Positions 1,194 to 35,782 of a DNA stretch of 64,000 bases are shown piece after piece. Position 1 is the stretch's first letter, and each line of letters begins with the position of its first letter. The DNA comes from an uncultured Verrucomicrobiae bacterium. Lineage in GTDB: Bacteria; Verrucomicrobiota; Verrucomicrobiia; Limisphaerales; UBA11358. The position numbers and the translations under genes are program-made. Below the pieces are notes generated by a model. That model was not told where the DNA came from and did not search any database. It worked only from the letters and a program-made list of their open reading frames with translations. Where the stretch lies: assembly GCA_963786375.1 (NCBI GenBank), contig CAWAYP010000001.1, positions 107,169 to 171,168 of the forward strand, written 5' to 3'.

Positions 1194-4073
1194 TCAGCGC
1201 GACTGGGGTTTCCCGTGGGAAACTTCGCCAGGACTGCCGTTGAAGTTTTCAGCCTCCTGCAACCTCAACTGCAAAAGCTGGATGTTTTCGCGCAAGCCTT
1301 CGGCCAGTTTCTTTTGCTTGTCCCGCAATTCGGCCTCGTGCGCCGCCTGGCTCTCGCGCAAGTTGCGCAATTCCAGACCCAGCGCCTCCTTGGCTTCGGC
1401 CAGGGTTTTATGTTCCGATTCCAAACGCGCCCGTTCCACCGCCTGTTGTTTCAAGCCGGACTGGGAGCGTTCCAACTCTACGTTGACCTGATTTAACCGC
1501 TCCTGAAGTTCGTTGGCCGCCTGCTGCGACTTTGCCGCCGCCTGCTGCTCGGCCGCGAACTTGTGCTGAAGTTCCTCACGCACCTGGTGCAGCCCGGCCA
1601 TTTCCTTTTCCAACTGGCCGCACCGTGCCTCTTTTTCCTTGAGGACGGTTTCCGTCTGGCTGGCCGCCGCTTTTGCCGCGTTCAGTTGCTCACGCCATTC
1701 CGACTCCAAACGCGTTCGTTCCGCCGCCTGTTGTTTCACGCCGGCTTGGGAGCGCTCCAGTTCCACATTGACCTGATTCAGCCGCTCCTGAAGTTCGTTG
1801 GCCGCCTGCTGCGACTTCGCCGCCGCCTGTTGTTCGGCGGCAAACTTGTTTTGAAGTTCATCCCGCATTTGCCGCAGCCCGCCGAGTTCCTTTTCCAACT
1901 GGCCGCACTGTTTTTCCTTTTCCTTGAGGACGGTTTCCGCCTGACCGGCCGCCGCCTTTGCCGCGTTCAATTGTTCGCGCCATTCCGATTCCAAACGTGC
2001 CCGCTCCGCCAATTGTTTTTCGAGGTTGGCCTTGAGTTCCTGCTGCGCTTTCGCCGCCGCCTGCTGTTCCGCCACGAACTTGTTCTGAAGTTCATCGCGT
2101 GTCTGCTTTAATCCGGCCAATTCCTTGTCCAACTGGCTACAGCGCGCCTCTTTTTCCTTGAGGACGGTTTCCGTCTGGCCCGCCGCCGCTTTCGCCGCGT
2201 TCAGTTGCTCGCGCCATTCCGATTCCAAACGCGCCCGCTCCGCCAATTGTTTTTCGAGGTTGGCCTTGAGTTCCTGCTGCGCTTTCGCCGCCGCCTGCTG
2301 CTCCGCCGCGAACTTGTTCTGAAGTTCATCCCGTGTCTGCTTTGACCCGGCCAATTCCTTTTCCAACTGGCCGCACCGCGCTTCCTTTTCTTTAAGCACG
2401 CCTTCTGTCTGTCCAATCAGCGCCCTCGCCGCGTTCAGTTGTTCGCGCCATTGCGATTCGATGCGTGCTCGTTCCGCGGATTCCTGTTCCAAGCCGGCTT
2501 TGGCGCGTTCCAATGCCGCACTGCCTTGGCGCAGACGTTCGTGAATTTCCGCATTTTGCGTTTCACCACCGCTCCGCTGACCGGTGGGGGTGGATGGCTT
2601 GGACTGAAGTGTTTGGTCGGGAACACTGGCCGGGCGCGGTTCCGGTTCCGGGCGTGTTGTCTTCGGGGGAGAGCCGGCAGTCTTGGCATCTTTGGCGCCA
2701 AGCTCGAAAATCGGCGCCAACCGGTTGGGTGGTTCCGGCGGCTGTGTCCCGGACTTGGCCGGCTGATTCATTCGAGTGGCGGCTGCGGGTTGAAGCACGT
2801 TTGCCGAACCATTGTTTGCGGCGGAAGGGGCTTCGGGTTGGGGGCGAACGCCTGACACCCGCGCCTTGATTAAATTAACGGTCACTTTCAGCGCCAGTTC
2901 CAAGGGGGAAACCGGTTTGGAAACGAAGTCATTGCCACCGCTGAGCACGCTCTGCTTGCGATTGTCGAAATTGCTGAAAGCCGTGACAAAAATGACCGGA
3001 GTCTTCTTGCAGTGCGGCAGACGGCGCATCTTTTCACAGACATCGAAGCCGGTCATGCCGGGCATGTTGACGTCGAGCACGACGAGGTCGAATGAAGTGG
3101 TTTCCAACAGGCTCAGTGCCGCGGCGGGGTCCTTCACGCCCACGGCGTCGAAATTGACCCGCTTCAGGGAAGTCACGTTTACATGATTGCAAACGGTGTC
3201 ATCGTCCACGACCAACACTTTGGCTTGAAACGGCGGCCCGACGGAATAGCCGTCATTGTTTTTCAAAAGCCCATCCAGGCAATCCACTGCTTGGGCGATG
3301 GTTTGCAACACCGACGGCGTTACCGTTGAGGGCTTGTCCATGATCCCGGAGAGCAACGCGTCCAGCGTATTTGTCAGCATGGCGACGCGGGCACAGTCGG
3401 CCTGAGTGGCGCTGGTGTTCAGCAAATGCACGCGCTGATGAAGCCCGGACAGATGAGCCCGACTGGCTTCCGAATCGGGCGCTTTGATGTACCCCATGCT
3501 GTGCTCGCGAATTTTGGGGATCATTGCCGCAGCTTCTTTCAAAAATGCCGCGCGTTGTTTTGTGGCCGCGGTTTCAGATTCAGGCATCACGACCGTCTGC
3601 GCGCCATTGTGCTGGCTTGCCCCATTGCCAGCCACTGGCGGCGTTGAAGGCGTTTTACCCGCTTCCACCACCACAAACTCCGGCGCGTGAGCGAGCGTCT
3701 CTTGAATGCTTGCCAGCAGCATGGGAAAGGTGCAGTCGCTTTTAAGCAGACGCTTGGTGCCTTGGGCCAGTGGGCTGTCCGGCGGCACTTCTGTCAATGG
3801 AGCGTTGGAAAAAATAATGACGGGAACCGTGGTCAGACGTGGATCGGCTTGCATGAATTTGAGCACATCGGCACCGCTGACCTTGGGCAACATCAGGTCC
3901 AGCAGGACCAAGTCCGGAGTGCGTTCGGAAAGAATATCAAGGGCCACCCGCCCGTCTTGCGCGCATTCCAGATGAAACCCTTCGCGCTCCAGACGCTTTT
4001 GGTACATGGTCTGTGAAACCGGATCGTTCTCGACATAGAGGATTGTCTTAACGCTTATACTTGTGCTTGTCAT
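1194..4073 (-). CDS. response regulator with two receiver domains, an Hpt-like middle region, a Pro-rich linker and a long C-terminal coiled coil (FrzS-like architecture)
   Basis: REC1: ILYVENDP...DLVLLDLMLPKVSGADVLKF...PVIIFSN. REC2: VLVVDDD...DLVVLDVNMPGMTGFDVCEKMR...PVIFVTAF. Between them lies a helical segment with VHLLNTSA where Hpt domains have HxxKGSA (tentative). The C-terminal ~430 aa are heptad-like Q/E/A/K/L-rich tandem repeats. Confidence 0.85.
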   Translation of the reverse strand: MTSTSISVKTILYVENDPVSQTMYQKRLEREGFHLECAQDGRVALDILSERTPDLVLLDLMLPKVSGADVLKFMQADPRLTTVPVIIFSNAPLTEVPPDSPLAQGTKRLLKSDCTFPMLLASIQETLAHAPEFVVVEAGKTPSTPPVAGNGASQHNGAQTVVMPESETAATKQRAAFLKEAAAMIPKIREHSMGYIKAPDSEASRAHLSGLHQRVHLLNTSATQADCARVAMLTNTLDALLSGIMDKPSTVTPSVLQTIAQAVDCLDGLLKNNDGYSVGPPFQAKVLVVDDDTVCNHVNVTSLKRVNFDAVGVKDPAAALSLLETTSFDLVVLDVNMPGMTGFDVCEKMRRLPHCKKTPVIFVTAFSNFDNRKQSVLSGGNDFVSKPVSPLELALKVTVNLIKARVSGVRPQPEAPSAANNGSANVLQPAAATRMNQPAKSGTQPPEPPNRLAPIFELGAKDAKTAGSPPKTTRPEPEPRPASVPDQTLQSKPSTPTGQRSGGETQNAEIHERLRQGSAALERAKAGLEQESAERARIESQWREQLNAARALIGQTEGVLKEKEARCGQLEKELAGSKQTRDELQNKFAAEQQAAAKAQQELKANLEKQLAERARLESEWREQLNAAKAAAGQTETVLKEKEARCSQLDKELAGLKQTRDELQNKFVAEQQAAAKAQQELKANLEKQLAERARLESEWREQLNAAKAAAGQAETVLKEKEKQCGQLEKELGGLRQMRDELQNKFAAEQQAAAKSQQAANELQERLNQVNVELERSQAGVKQQAAERTRLESEWREQLNAAKAAASQTETVLKEKEARCGQLEKEMAGLHQVREELQHKFAAEQQAAAKSQQAANELQERLNQVNVELERSQSGLKQQAVERARLESEHKTLAEAKEALGLELRNLRESQAAHEAELRDKQKKLAEGLRENIQLLQLRLQEAENFNGSPGEVSHGKPQSR
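1437..2474 (-). repeat. in-frame tandem coding repeats (2 x 234 bp then 2 x 285 bp) that build the coiled coil
   Basis: Protein units begin ER(A/T)R(L/I)ES(E/Q)WREQLNAA... and are repeated four times plus a partial fifth. Unit boundaries were computed from the translation as 2241-2474, 2007-2240, 1722-2006 and 1437-1721. Confidence 0.9.
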
Positions 4074-31208: not shown

Positions 31209-32750
31209 TCACTTCGCCGCCGTGAATTTGTAGAGTTCGACGCTTTGAGCGGCAATGTTCACTTTGAACAGCTCCTTGCCGGTGTCGGCGATGTCGGGCA
31301 CGTCCTGTTGCCGCCACAAATCGCGCACGTGCTGATGGCCGTTGATGCCAATGTAATCAAGTTTGTTGAATTCAATGCTCACCGGGACCGAGCTGCGGTT
31401 GAAAAACGCGACGGCTTTGCCGCCATCCGCCAAATCCTTCAAGTAAACGTCCACGGCCCCGACCGTCGCCACGCGCGTGGCTTGTTTGCCGAGCGCGTCC
31501 TGGTCAATCGCGAGCACCTCGTCGTTGTCCAGGAGATTGAGGGTGAAGGGGTCAAGCCGGTCGAGATCACAGCCGATGAGCAGCGGCGCGGACAACATGC
31601 ACCACATGGTGATGTGCGTGTATTGCTCATCCGGCGTGAGCCGCGACGGATGGGGATTTCCCCAGCCGACGTCGCCGACGACCAGCATGTCGGGATCGTT
31701 CCAATGTCCCGGCCCGGCGAACGGCGCCCAGCGGTCCTGCGAAAAGGCGATTTCCGAGACGGTAAATTGATAGAATTGGCCGGGCATGTTCCAACTGTCA
31801 AAAATGTCGCCGGTGGTGCGCCAGCAATTCGCCCATTGCGCCCAGTCGGCGGCGTGATCAAACGGCGCGTTGTTCGAGAGGCTGAAAACGATGTCGCGTC
31901 CGGATTTTCGCAGGGCCTGGCTCATGGCCTTGGTGTGCGCCACGTCAATGGGGTTCCAGTCATATTTCAGATAATCAAACCCCCAGGCAGCCCATTGAAG
32001 AGCGTCGGCTTGGATGAAGGAATATTTGCCGAAACGCTTTTCATTCTGCATCGCCTTGGTCCAGACGCCGGCGGCATTGTCGCCCGACTCGCCGGCATCG
32101 CCGCCATAGGAGGTAATCCACGGCGTGGAATAAATGCCCGCTTTCAAACCCAGCGCGTGGACCTCGTCGCATAATCCTTTCATGTCGGGAAAACGTTTGT
32201 TGCCCTGGAGCGCGTGATCCTGGCCGGTGCGCTGGCCCTGCCACGTGTCGTCAATGTTGATGTAAGTCCAGCCGTGATTGATGAGGCCCGAGGAAACCAT
32301 CGCCCGCGCCGAGCGCAACACTTTGTCGGCGCTGACCGTCCAGGCCCAGCAGTTCCAACTGTTCCAGCCCATCGGCGGCGTGAGCGCGATTTTGCCGCCG
32401 ACCACAATGCGGAATTTCTTCTCCACCTCGCCCTTCGCATTTTTGGCGTGGAACATAACGTCATATTCACCCTTCTTTTTGAGCGAGCCGGTGATCTGGC
32501 CGTTGGCGGCATTCACGCTCAAACCGGCGGGCAGGTTTTCGACGCTGAACGTCATGGGCCGGTCGCCGGTGGCCGGAATGGTGTACAGCAACGGCGAGCC
32601 GGGCCGGACGCCGAAAATGTCCGGGCCGTTGATGCGCGGCGTATCCGGCGCGGGCGGCGTGCGGATGAACGGGGAATAATCCGGCGCGTCGGCGGCGCGG
32701 AGATGGAGACAGGTCAGCAACAGGCAGAGGGAAAGGAATCGTGAAGTCAT
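31209..32750 (-). CDS. secreted GH27 alpha-galactosidase-like glycosidase with an N-terminal Ig-like domain
   Basis: Signal peptide, then PPMGWNSWNCW and YINIDDTWQG (GH27 catalytic-domain motifs). Confidence 0.82.
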   Translation of the reverse strand: MTSRFLSLCLLLTCLHLRAADAPDYSPFIRTPPAPDTPRINGPDIFGVRPGSPLLYTIPATGDRPMTFSVENLPAGLSVNAANGQITGSLKKKGEYDVMFHAKNAKGEVEKKFRIVVGGKIALTPPMGWNSWNCWAWTVSADKVLRSARAMVSSGLINHGWTYINIDDTWQGQRTGQDHALQGNKRFPDMKGLCDEVHALGLKAGIYSTPWITSYGGDAGESGDNAAGVWTKAMQNEKRFGKYSFIQADALQWAAWGFDYLKYDWNPIDVAHTKAMSQALRKSGRDIVFSLSNNAPFDHAADWAQWANCWRTTGDIFDSWNMPGQFYQFTVSEIAFSQDRWAPFAGPGHWNDPDMLVVGDVGWGNPHPSRLTPDEQYTHITMWCMLSAPLLIGCDLDRLDPFTLNLLDNDEVLAIDQDALGKQATRVATVGAVDVYLKDLADGGKAVAFFNRSSVPVSIEFNKLDYIGINGHQHVRDLWRQQDVPDIADTGKELFKVNIAAQSVELYKFTAAK

Positions 32751-32811
32751 GCGGGGAGGATAACACTTGAGAACTCGGCCATGTCAAGCGCCGCCCCAAA
32801 ACGGGAGTGTC

Positions 32812-33150
32812 CTAATTTGGATTTTTGTATCGGAAAAATAGTACTTCCCCTGTGCTGTCTTCTTCTAATCTCGCTAAAAGTTCCAACTGTTTACTGCTTT
32901 GATAGGCTTCCCAAATTTGGTTCTCACTTAGACCCGTATATCTTGAAATCGCCGTAACACTGCAAGCTCCCTGATAGCCTGTTTGCATATCCTCGTACCT
33001 CACCCCTCTTAAGTAATTCTCCAGCCTTTTCTTTCTGATTCTTAGGCCGCATTTGAATCCAATCCAAAACCAGACAGCCACTATTGCTGTCGCAATTGCT
33101 GCGAAGTTGGCTCCGATTTCTAGCCAATCCTTAAACGTTCCACTGGTCAT
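32812..33150 (-). CDS. hypothetical membrane-anchored protein (cargo of the TIR-bounded module)
   Basis: SD-like AAGGGTGA lies 7 nt upstream of the ATG. One N-terminal TM (IGANFAAIATAIVAVWFWIGF) precedes a soluble ~70-aa tail. The stop codon lies inside IR-L. No family recognised. Confidence 0.55.
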   Translation of the reverse strand: MTSGTFKDWLEIGANFAAIATAIVAVWFWIGFKCGLRIRKKRLENYLRGVRYEDMQTGYQGACSVTAISRYTGLSENQIWEAYQSSKQLELLARLEEDSTGEVLFFRYKNPN

Positions 33151-33369
33151 TTAATATCACCCTTCACATCTTTCACGGTTTGAATTCGCGGCTGGATTTT
33201 TATTTTTTTAACTTAAATTTTCGGGTGGGAGAGGTAGCTTTGGCAGCAGCCAGTAATTTTCTCATCACGCTTTGATCTGGCACTGGCTTTATCACAGGGG
33301 CTTTTGTTGGTAATTTGCCGTTCAGCTTTGACACCATTCGATTCCGAAGCGGAAAATGTAGGAGCTTTT

Positions 33370-33465
33370 TTGGGAATAGTTTTCAGTCTAGCAATTTTGT
33401 TCGGAGTTTGGATGATAGGCGCAATTCCATCTTTCCTGATTTGGTTTATTTTCAAGAAAAGATAA
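33370..33465 (+). CDS. candidate 31-aa hydrophobic peptide (cargo of the TIR-bounded module)
   Basis: AGGAG (33360-33364), 5 nt, then a TTG start. Reads (M)GIVFSLAILFGVWMIGAIPSFLIWFIFKKR-stop. Below the ORF-track size cutoff and found by hand translation. Competes with the 80-aa minus-strand ORF 33213..33455. Confidence 0.25.
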   Translation: MGIVFSLAILFGVWMIGAIPSFLIWFIFKKR

Positions 33466-33543
33466 TTTCAAATTAGGACACTACCCCCAAAACCAATCCC
33501 GTACGCGGCTTGACGGCACCGCGGATTCGTCCTAGCTTTCAAC

Positions 33544-35782
<2,239 letters not shown>

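Follow-up and report, generated by a model that had tools for sequence, protein, structure and literature searches.

A probable IS1-related mobile insertion cassette between the alpha-galactosidase and thiC genes of an uncultured Verrucomicrobiae bacterium

In the genome of an uncultured Verrucomicrobiae bacterium, an AT-rich block lies between an alpha-galactosidase gene (31209-32750, minus strand) and the thiamine pyrophosphate (TPP) riboswitch (33537-33661) that is followed by thiC, which raises the question of what this block is and how it came to be there. The window considered here is the whole analyzed stretch of 64,000 nucleotides of contig CAWAYP010000001.1 (assembly GCA_963786375.1, positions 107,169 to 171,168), to which all coordinates refer unless another locus, designated by an L number, is named. 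An original prediction, made from the letters of the window, had correctly placed the block between these two neighbors and had described it as a transposase-less element of no known family, bounded by terminal inverted repeats (TIRs) and a target-site duplication (TSD), with a two-gene, possibly toxin/immunity-like cargo. The 683-bp block is very probably a non-autonomous derivative of an IS1-family insertion sequence (IS), that is, a mobile insertion cassette (MIC), because it shares its 17-bp ends with transposase-bearing elements, is flanked by an 8-bp duplication, has an empty counterpart site and possesses no transposase of its own. The proposed non-autonomous element with cargo has accordingly gained other copies, autonomous partners and an empty site, while its supposed lack of a known family gives way to the IS1 family, or at least an IS1-like group, on the grounds of its ends, its duplication and an IS1-like cognate transposase.

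The boundaries of the element are sharply defined in the window. Even with up to two mismatches allowed, the 14-mer AGTGTCCTAATTTG is matched at just two places in the 64 kb, directly at 32806-32819 and as its exact reverse complement at 33469-33482, and the 9-mer CCCCAAAAC is found at 32794-32802 and 33485-33493 and nowhere else. These had been taken for a perfect 14-bp TIR and a 9-bp duplication, and both are indeed present, but comparison with the family extends the repeat to 17 bp with one mismatch, and the true length of the duplication is 8 bp, the ninth base being at one copy the C that ends the right repeat and at the other a C that happens to stand in the flank. The left repeat, GGGAGTGTCCTAATTTG, occupies 32803-32819 and the right repeat, CAAATTAGGACACTACC, 33469-33485 (both given on the plus strand), and two identical copies of the 8-mer CCCAAAAC flank them at 32795-32802 and 33486-33493; delimited in this way from the sequence, the element spans 32803-33485, or 683 bp. 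When the two ends are compared with those of 14 transposase-bearing elements, the right one agrees at 17 of 17 positions and represents the exact family consensus, whereas the left one agrees at 16 of 17, with a G at base 3 where the consensus GGTAGTGTCCTAATTTG has a T. The GC content inside the element is 0.39-0.45 (0.42 for the whole) versus 0.58-0.65 in the flanks (0.60 and 0.58 for the two), a drop that had also been recognized earlier.

The significance of the repeat becomes apparent from its distribution. A scan of public collections recovered the exact 16- or 17-mer at 60 viral-contig loci and in at least 120 metagenome stretches, and in an alignment of all occurrences the 17 nucleotides are conserved as (Y)CAAATTAGGACACTACC, while the interior and the flanks are not. 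The census of public viral and metagenome contigs comprises at least 45 distinct facing pairs, 0.2-5.2 kb apart, and the bases just outside the facing copies are direct repeats, exact in 29 of the 45 pairs (26 of 8 bp and three of 9 bp), with all 29 exact duplications differing in sequence; both ends are exact in 24 pairs. The family ends are identical across contigs of 36%-69% GC, and the copy that closes a homologous gene in L007, TCAAATTAGGACACTACC, is identical to the right end in the window despite saturated synonymous sites between the two genes. Since the same repeat is found with other 8-bp duplications in dozens of unrelated contigs, the repeat and duplication structure is judged to lie far beyond chance. 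The family is common in soil and peat metagenomes.

The facing pairs also reveal the relation between autonomous and non-autonomous copies. At least 80% of a transposase is present in 14 of the 45 pairs (2.5-5.2 kb), four contain only relics and 27 contain none (204-2766 bp), so that internal-deletion derivatives are about twice as common as autonomous copies in this sample. Several transposase-less pairs (L161, L172, L056 and L202) retain p95, a small gene of the autonomous elements, or relics of it, and L022 has kept a fragment of the transposase N-terminus, as seen by eye; L015, L022, L161 and L202 are the relic-bearing elements. Both searches suggested by the original prediction, for further copies of the TIR and for an autonomous element with the same ends, were thus successful, and neither of the findings that it had named as refuting was made, be it a TIR with no other copy together with relatives that have the block but no TIR and TSD structure, or a 9-bp repeat that forms part of a longer local one.

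A relative with an unoccupied site, which had likewise been suggested as a check, is provided by L071, a related Verrucomicrobiota metagenome-assembled genome (MAG) with the same divergent thiC-riboswitch and alpha-galactosidase layout, in which the site is uninterrupted and holds a single, unduplicated 8-mer. The −35-like boxes of the two genes (GTCAAG for thiC, read in the alpha-galactosidase orientation, and TTGACATGG for alpha-galactosidase) are 30 nucleotides apart in L071 and 721 nucleotides apart in the window, which equals 30 + 683 + 8. Removal of the element and one copy of the duplication from the window allele restores the 30-nucleotide spacing and gives a gapless alignment to L071 across the site. 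The repeat is absent from all 80 related loci that were examined. The host is of the Verrucomicrobiae type, the best relatives of its alpha-galactosidase (85% and 79% amino acid identity) being those of Verrucomicrobiae and Verrucomicrobiota MAGs. The element is present at this locus in each of six independent assemblies (L001-L006) that belong to the species of the window, so it is fixed there; an exact look-up of the alpha-galactosidase protein, aimed at a same-species empty allele, gave no record.

It is against these data that a non-transposon origin has to be weighed, namely a chance inverted repeat around an acquired gene or an integron-like cassette moved by site-specific recombination. 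A similar motif, CAGATTAGGACGCTATG, does recur in L007 in direct orientation after the next gene, and the gene junctions of that contig led to the repeat being considered as a cassette-junction motif, an idea rejected on account of the duplications and the transposases. The 29 independent insertions, whose exact duplications of 8 or 9 bp are unrelated to one another in sequence, the DDE transposases in full-length copies, the empty site that differs by exactly the element plus 8 bp and the lack of any integrase or attC-like structure leave such an origin a practically negligible probability.

The assignment to IS1 comes from the autonomous relatives. Full-length members of the family are about 2.6-3.0 kb long, and up to 5.2 kb with passengers, and the canonical element encodes an IS1-like DDE transposase of about 275 amino acids, the conserved p95 protein and a small, likewise conserved ribbon-helix-helix (RHH) protein. 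The best-scoring NCBIfam family for the transposase is NF033558 (IS1), with an E-value of 3e-15 and 56 bits at a curated cut-off of 100, and the Pfam model DDE_Tnp_IS1 gives 33.2 bits for the L049 transposase and 22 bits for that of L025, the cut-off being 24.1. Relatives with 46% identity, encoded on plasmids of the cultured bacteria Mesorhizobium loti (p_1, CP050295) and Acidiphilium multivorum (NZ_CP041717), bear the annotation 'IS1 family transposase', and the elements around them terminate in related 17-bp sequences, GGTAGTGGGTCAGTTTG and GGTAGTGTCTCAGTTTG, flanked by exact 8-bp duplications. The element itself contains no transposase, as had been noted, and in the entire 64-kb window there is likewise no transposase, no p95 and no second repeat pair; in the 318-bp AT-rich interior (33151-33468), where several short unsupported open reading frames (ORFs) occur on both strands, searches with tblastn and a p95 hidden Markov model found no relic of transposase, p95 or RHH, and Rfam had no match in the element.

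The history of the locus would then be as follows. An internal deletion would have produced the cassette from a sub-lineage in which a gene for a transmembrane winged-helix protein, discussed below, stands last, beside the right repeat. A cognate transposase binding the 17-bp ends would have moved the cassette in trans and joined its ends to an 8-bp staggered cut in the target, and the donor would have been of lower GC content. The cassette would have come to rest in the gap that separates the −35 box of the alpha-galactosidase promoter from that of the divergent thiC promoter, and would have spared both. Seen from the insertion, the −35 box of alpha-galactosidase (32782-32787, minus strand) is 7 nucleotides downstream and that of thiC (33510-33515, plus strand) 16 nucleotides downstream, and both promoters and the TPP riboswitch are unbroken. 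The AT-rich island between the two genes is thereby explained as a simple insertion of foreign DNA. No terminator-like site was found between the gene carried by the element and the alpha-galactosidase gene toward which it points, and transcriptional read-through from the former into the latter is possible, judging by this arrangement.

Several observations weigh against such an account. First, the 64-kb window has no autonomous copy, so that mobilization in trans in this host is a presumption. Next, the interior holds no transposase or p95 relic, so that the deletion origin would follow by analogy with the relic-bearing elements L015, L022, L161 and L202. The base-3 mismatch might disable the left end. 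The species that supplies the empty site is a related one (79% amino acid identity in the neighboring gene) and not that of the window, and there is no sign of recent movement, because all six other assemblies of the species have the element here. Finally, the transposase scores below the NCBIfam cut-off, and one of the two tested also below that of Pfam, for which reason the family is either a divergent IS1 branch or a group that resembles IS1.

The next question is what the cassette carries. An ORF of 112 codons' worth of protein extends over 32812-33150 on the minus strand and has its TAG stop inside the left repeat, as the original prediction had it. Its closest homologue, P0002 of L007, is 71% identical, lies on an unrelated AT-rich contig and was the sole close one in a word-indexed search. 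In this comparison the nonsynonymous divergence (pN) is 0.17 and the synonymous divergence (pS) 0.83, which indicates that the 112-residue product is real and under purifying selection. The word-indexed search, with two clusters, had made the protein appear an orphan, a view overturned by an exhaustive profile search that recovered 90 clusters of full-length relatives of about 100-125 amino acids; the family is unnamed. Shared by its members in the alignment are ANxAAIxTAxVAV, a hydrophobic segment at the N-terminus, the basic stretch KRxxLExYLK and a C-terminal domain. The AlphaFold2 model calculated with the family alignment is confident (pLDDT of 92.7) and consists of a long helix (residues 4-57, with a hydrophobic core at about 12-32), two helices and a beta-hairpin. 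From the model the protein is predicted to combine an N-terminal transmembrane helix (residues of about 12-32), in agreement with the helix proposed earlier, with a winged-helix domain, and since a cluster of Lys and Arg residues follows the hydrophobic segment, the winged helix is predicted to reside in the cytoplasm, with the protein tethered at the inner membrane.

Comparison of the model with known structures gave a fold and not a function. A Foldseek search that included PDB and BFVD matched winged-helix proteins exclusively (ArsR, MarR, PadR, TFE, Z-alpha and uncharacterized phage proteins), all weakly, with E-values of 5e-3 or above, and in PDB and BFVD no specific functional relative was found; the structural and remote-homology check that had been suggested thus adds the winged-helix fold, but its matches are weak and none is functionally specific. 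When the 112-residue protein and the short ORFs were searched against Pfam, the only match was a weak one to HTH_Tnp_ISL3 (E 0.004), which reflects a generic helix-turn-helix (HTH); NCBIfam and PADLOC gave nothing for the same set and PHROGs marginal matches only, and a tblastn search of PLSDB with the 112-residue protein had no match. A promoter-like consensus site is located at 33328-33357 (plus strand) in the interior, where the number of such sites is no greater than expected by chance; the interior presumably holds the promoter of the gene.

The genomic contexts of ten family members bear on the role of the protein. Six of the genes end inside the repeat (the window, L007, L151, L152, L153 and L277), the gene in L150 ends in a degenerate copy of it, and L154, L278 and L279 are without the repeat. 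In L152 the transposase is followed by p95, then by the transmembrane winged-helix gene and finally by the right repeat. The gene comes immediately after p95 or its remnant in each of L151-L153, and it recurs in L277, a further transposase-less cassette, 1257 bp long. In L007 no left repeat is found within 1.7 kb, and that contig therefore does not span its element.

Such contexts might suggest that the 112-residue protein regulates transposition, as an analogue of InsA that binds the ends or the transposase promoter, in which case the cassette would be a repressor-only derivative. The ending of six of ten family genes inside the repeat and of a seventh in a degenerate copy, the position after p95 or its relic in L151-L153 and behind a transposase-p95 operon in L152, and the modeled DNA-binding fold are all in line with this, and in Escherichia coli IS1 the inverted repeats are bound by InsA, itself a small HTH protein. 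However, of the 140 loci that the repeat by itself retrieved, 13 transposase-bearing pairs among them, not one encodes the gene, which is therefore dispensable for the family; the protein lacks a zinc finger and resembles neither InsA nor the transposase in sequence, three of the family members are not associated with any recognizable repeat, and a membrane anchor would be unprecedented for such a regulator. A regulatory role of this kind is therefore considered unlikely. A similarly low probability is given to the broader proposal that the winged-helix family is a dedicated accessory of the IS1-like lineage, being a membrane-tethered regulator or immunity factor that binds the element ends or DNA. 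If true, it would be a new kind of IS-encoded regulator, the element of the window would modulate autonomous copies in trans, and the stop codon within the repeat could be explained. Homology to InsA proper is ruled out, as the family alignment has no Cys/His zinc motif and a transmembrane helix and a winged helix are predicted instead. Given its absence from all 140 repeat-recovered loci, the gene is viewed as a recurrent passenger or accessory of one sub-lineage rather than as part of the core, and its product is, on the strength of the model, most likely a DNA-binding passenger or accessory protein.

The second gene of the originally predicted two-gene module fares less well. The candidate is a hydrophobic ORF of 31 codons at 33370-33465 (plus strand), which begins with TTG, ends in KKR-TAA and is preceded by AGGAG at 33360-33364 with a 5-nucleotide gap. 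A search of 5.8 billion proteins with the 53-residue ORF that encloses it found no homologue, the peptide was left uncalled by gene callers on all six assemblies L001-L006, and its sole match is a weak PHROG (E 0.0055). The strand that encodes it is T-rich (AT skew −0.14 to −0.27), and a hydrophobic ORF can be attributed to chance because such a strand abounds in codons with a central T. The ORF is probably not a gene, to judge by these features, so that the module retains the 112-residue gene, supported by pN and pS, and loses the peptide.

The same evidence bears on whether the cargo could be a toxin/immunity or type I toxin-antitoxin pair, with the peptide as the toxin and the 112-residue protein as its partner. 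In favor of such a pair are the pronounced hydrophobicity of the peptide, its KKR end, the AGGAG 5 nucleotides before its start and the promoter-like site just upstream, and toxin-antitoxin-like passengers do occur in other elements of the family, for example the PIN-like and HTH/M78 pair in L152. Yet besides lacking homologues and gene calls, the peptide ORF has no equivalent next to the homologous gene in L007, L151-L153 or L277, its strand generates hydrophobic ORFs by chance, the promoter-like site would begin the transcript within the AGGAG, searches with PADLOC and Rfam came back empty, and the partner is modeled as a winged-helix protein. Taken together, a toxin pair is very improbable, and the toxin/immunity-like character first suggested is replaced by a membrane-anchored winged helix that is not a recognizable toxin or immunity protein.

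The preferred reading of the block as a non-autonomous IS1-family cassette places it in a family whose passenger load is varied and includes methyltransferases, TnpB, toxin-antitoxin-like pairs and many single-pass membrane proteins. Among the larger copies, L010 carries a DNA methyltransferase, L049 a methyltransferase that is type II-like and L152 the PIN-like and HTH/M78 pair. Many of the passengers in small derivatives (L015, L022, L041, L043, L064 and L065) are single- or multi-pass membrane proteins without a family match, akin to the protein of the window. The p95 protein is about 95-100 residues long, has the motif FxGxxVWxGxVEVF...AWS...PP..SP..AV and follows the transposase in most autonomous copies (examples are L025 3530-3832, L152 7707-7994 and L151 1-309, besides about 30 other loci); it survives alone in some small derivatives (L172 and L056), has no Pfam or NCBIfam match and is an uncharacterized accessory protein of an insertion sequence. 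A 1236-bp element at L047 7367-8602 has these IS1-like repeats, an exact duplication, AAAGAAAG, and a TnpB gene as its sole cargo. This TnpB comprises 390 residues, matches OrfB_IS605 and a Cas12f-like TNB domain, has its stop codon in the repeat and is found away from IS200/IS605 and IS607, the usual surroundings of TnpB; a known omega-RNA family was not detected.

The repeat has further properties of its own. Its inner part supplies an in-frame Asn codon and stop, AAT TAG here and AAC TGA in an alphaproteobacterial variant, CAAACTGA (L155 4152-4168 and L156 3881-3897), which is why outward-reading ORFs end in ...N* within the repeat, as seen for the 112-residue protein, p95 of L025, TnpB of L047 and many passengers. 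A second ORF in the window, at 33315-33476 (plus strand), also ends in this manner (...ISN*), within the right repeat. Ends in the same orientation, exact or degenerate, are found 200-300 bp apart in L007 (1965-1981), L041 (2104 and 2398), L063 (2929 and 3131) and L164 (515 and 711), an arrangement suggestive of one-ended derivatives or of insertions that are nested or in tandem; the second motif of L007 stands after an 87-residue gene and before a J-domain gene.

The insertion sites share some features as well. Positions 1 and 8 of the duplication are C or G in about 75% of the ends, and positions 2-7 are richer in A and T. An outward-reading, −35-like TTGAC box starts 14-25 nucleotides outside the end in eight of 78 unique ends, in seven of them at +14 or +16, while random positions in the same loci give 1.7 ± 1.4; the observation concerns the flanks in L015, L017, L024, L045, L048 and L056 and, in the window, the two promoter boxes given above. 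The family appears to have a target preference, and insertion may favor the stretch immediately upstream of promoters. The 60 viral-classed contigs with the repeat (L010-L069, from IMG/VR) have flanks of 0.36-0.69 GC, and the family may often have phages or prophage regions as its hosts or vectors.

Two related loci deviate from the layout of the window. L006, a Logan contig of the same locus, differs from the window in its last 20 nucleotides (891-910), beyond 32758, which is probably an assembly artifact or a strain variant. In L072, which is a MAG of related Verrucomicrobiae, about 2.4 kb separate the thiC start from the TPP riboswitch match upstream of it (1282-3699), so that something stands between riboswitch and thiC, and the spacer toward the alpha-galactosidase gene is 143 nucleotides longer.

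In the searchable literature, which did not extend to ISfinder, the repeat sequence was met in unrelated primers alone and a description of the family was not found. The present analysis outlines an IS1-like family not found described there, which should be of use for the annotation of environmental genomes and to specialists in mobile DNA, and it changes no concept.

How, then, does the element compare with known systems? E. coli IS1 is 0.77 kb long, has ends of GGTAATG and GGTGATG, makes duplications of 8-9 bp, and its last ORF, insB, stops inside the right repeat. The present family follows the same pattern, with termini that start with GGTAGTG, duplications of 8-9 bp, a last ORF that stops in the right repeat, a cognate DDE transposase whose best matches are IS1 models and plasmid IS1 elements with related ends and 8-bp duplications. 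It departs from IS1 in that the element of the window is without a transposase and the autonomous relatives are 2.6-5 kb long; their transposase is encoded by a single ORF with no obvious InsA or frameshift arrangement and scores below the curated NCBIfam cut-off for IS1, and they add p95, RHH and often passengers. Like InsA, the 112-residue protein is small, has a DNA-binding fold according to the model and is encoded at one end of an IS1-type element; unlike InsA, it has an N-terminal transmembrane helix and neither a zinc finger nor sequence similarity to it, and its gene is absent from most elements of the family.

With MITEs, the miniature transposable elements bounded by inverted repeats, the cassette shares its non-autonomous nature, its TIR and TSD and its intergenic location. 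It is nevertheless 683 bp long, one half being taken up by an intact gene on which purifying selection acts, which rules out a MITE in the strict sense of a small, non-coding element; members of MITE size, 204-233 bp, do exist in the same family (L232, L028 and L183).

A closer counterpart is found in the MICs, defined as IS ends around one or more genes unrelated to the transposase, with no transposase of their own and mobilized in trans (PMC3129680, PMC9330008). An example is MIC231 of Bacillus cereus, derived from IS231, and transporter ISs (tISs) are known among relatives of IS1595 and IS1 (PMC3129680, PMC9330008). The full-length, passenger-carrying relatives of the element fit the definition of a tIS (PMC9330008), and the cassette can be classed as a non-autonomous derivative of a tIS that belongs to the IS1 family or at least resembles it. 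The element of the window differs from MIC231 in being derived from an IS1-like element and not from IS231, a member of the IS4 family, and in that its mobilization in trans is presumed; like other MICs, it consists of IS ends and a passenger gene, has no transposase and would be mobilized by one supplied in trans.

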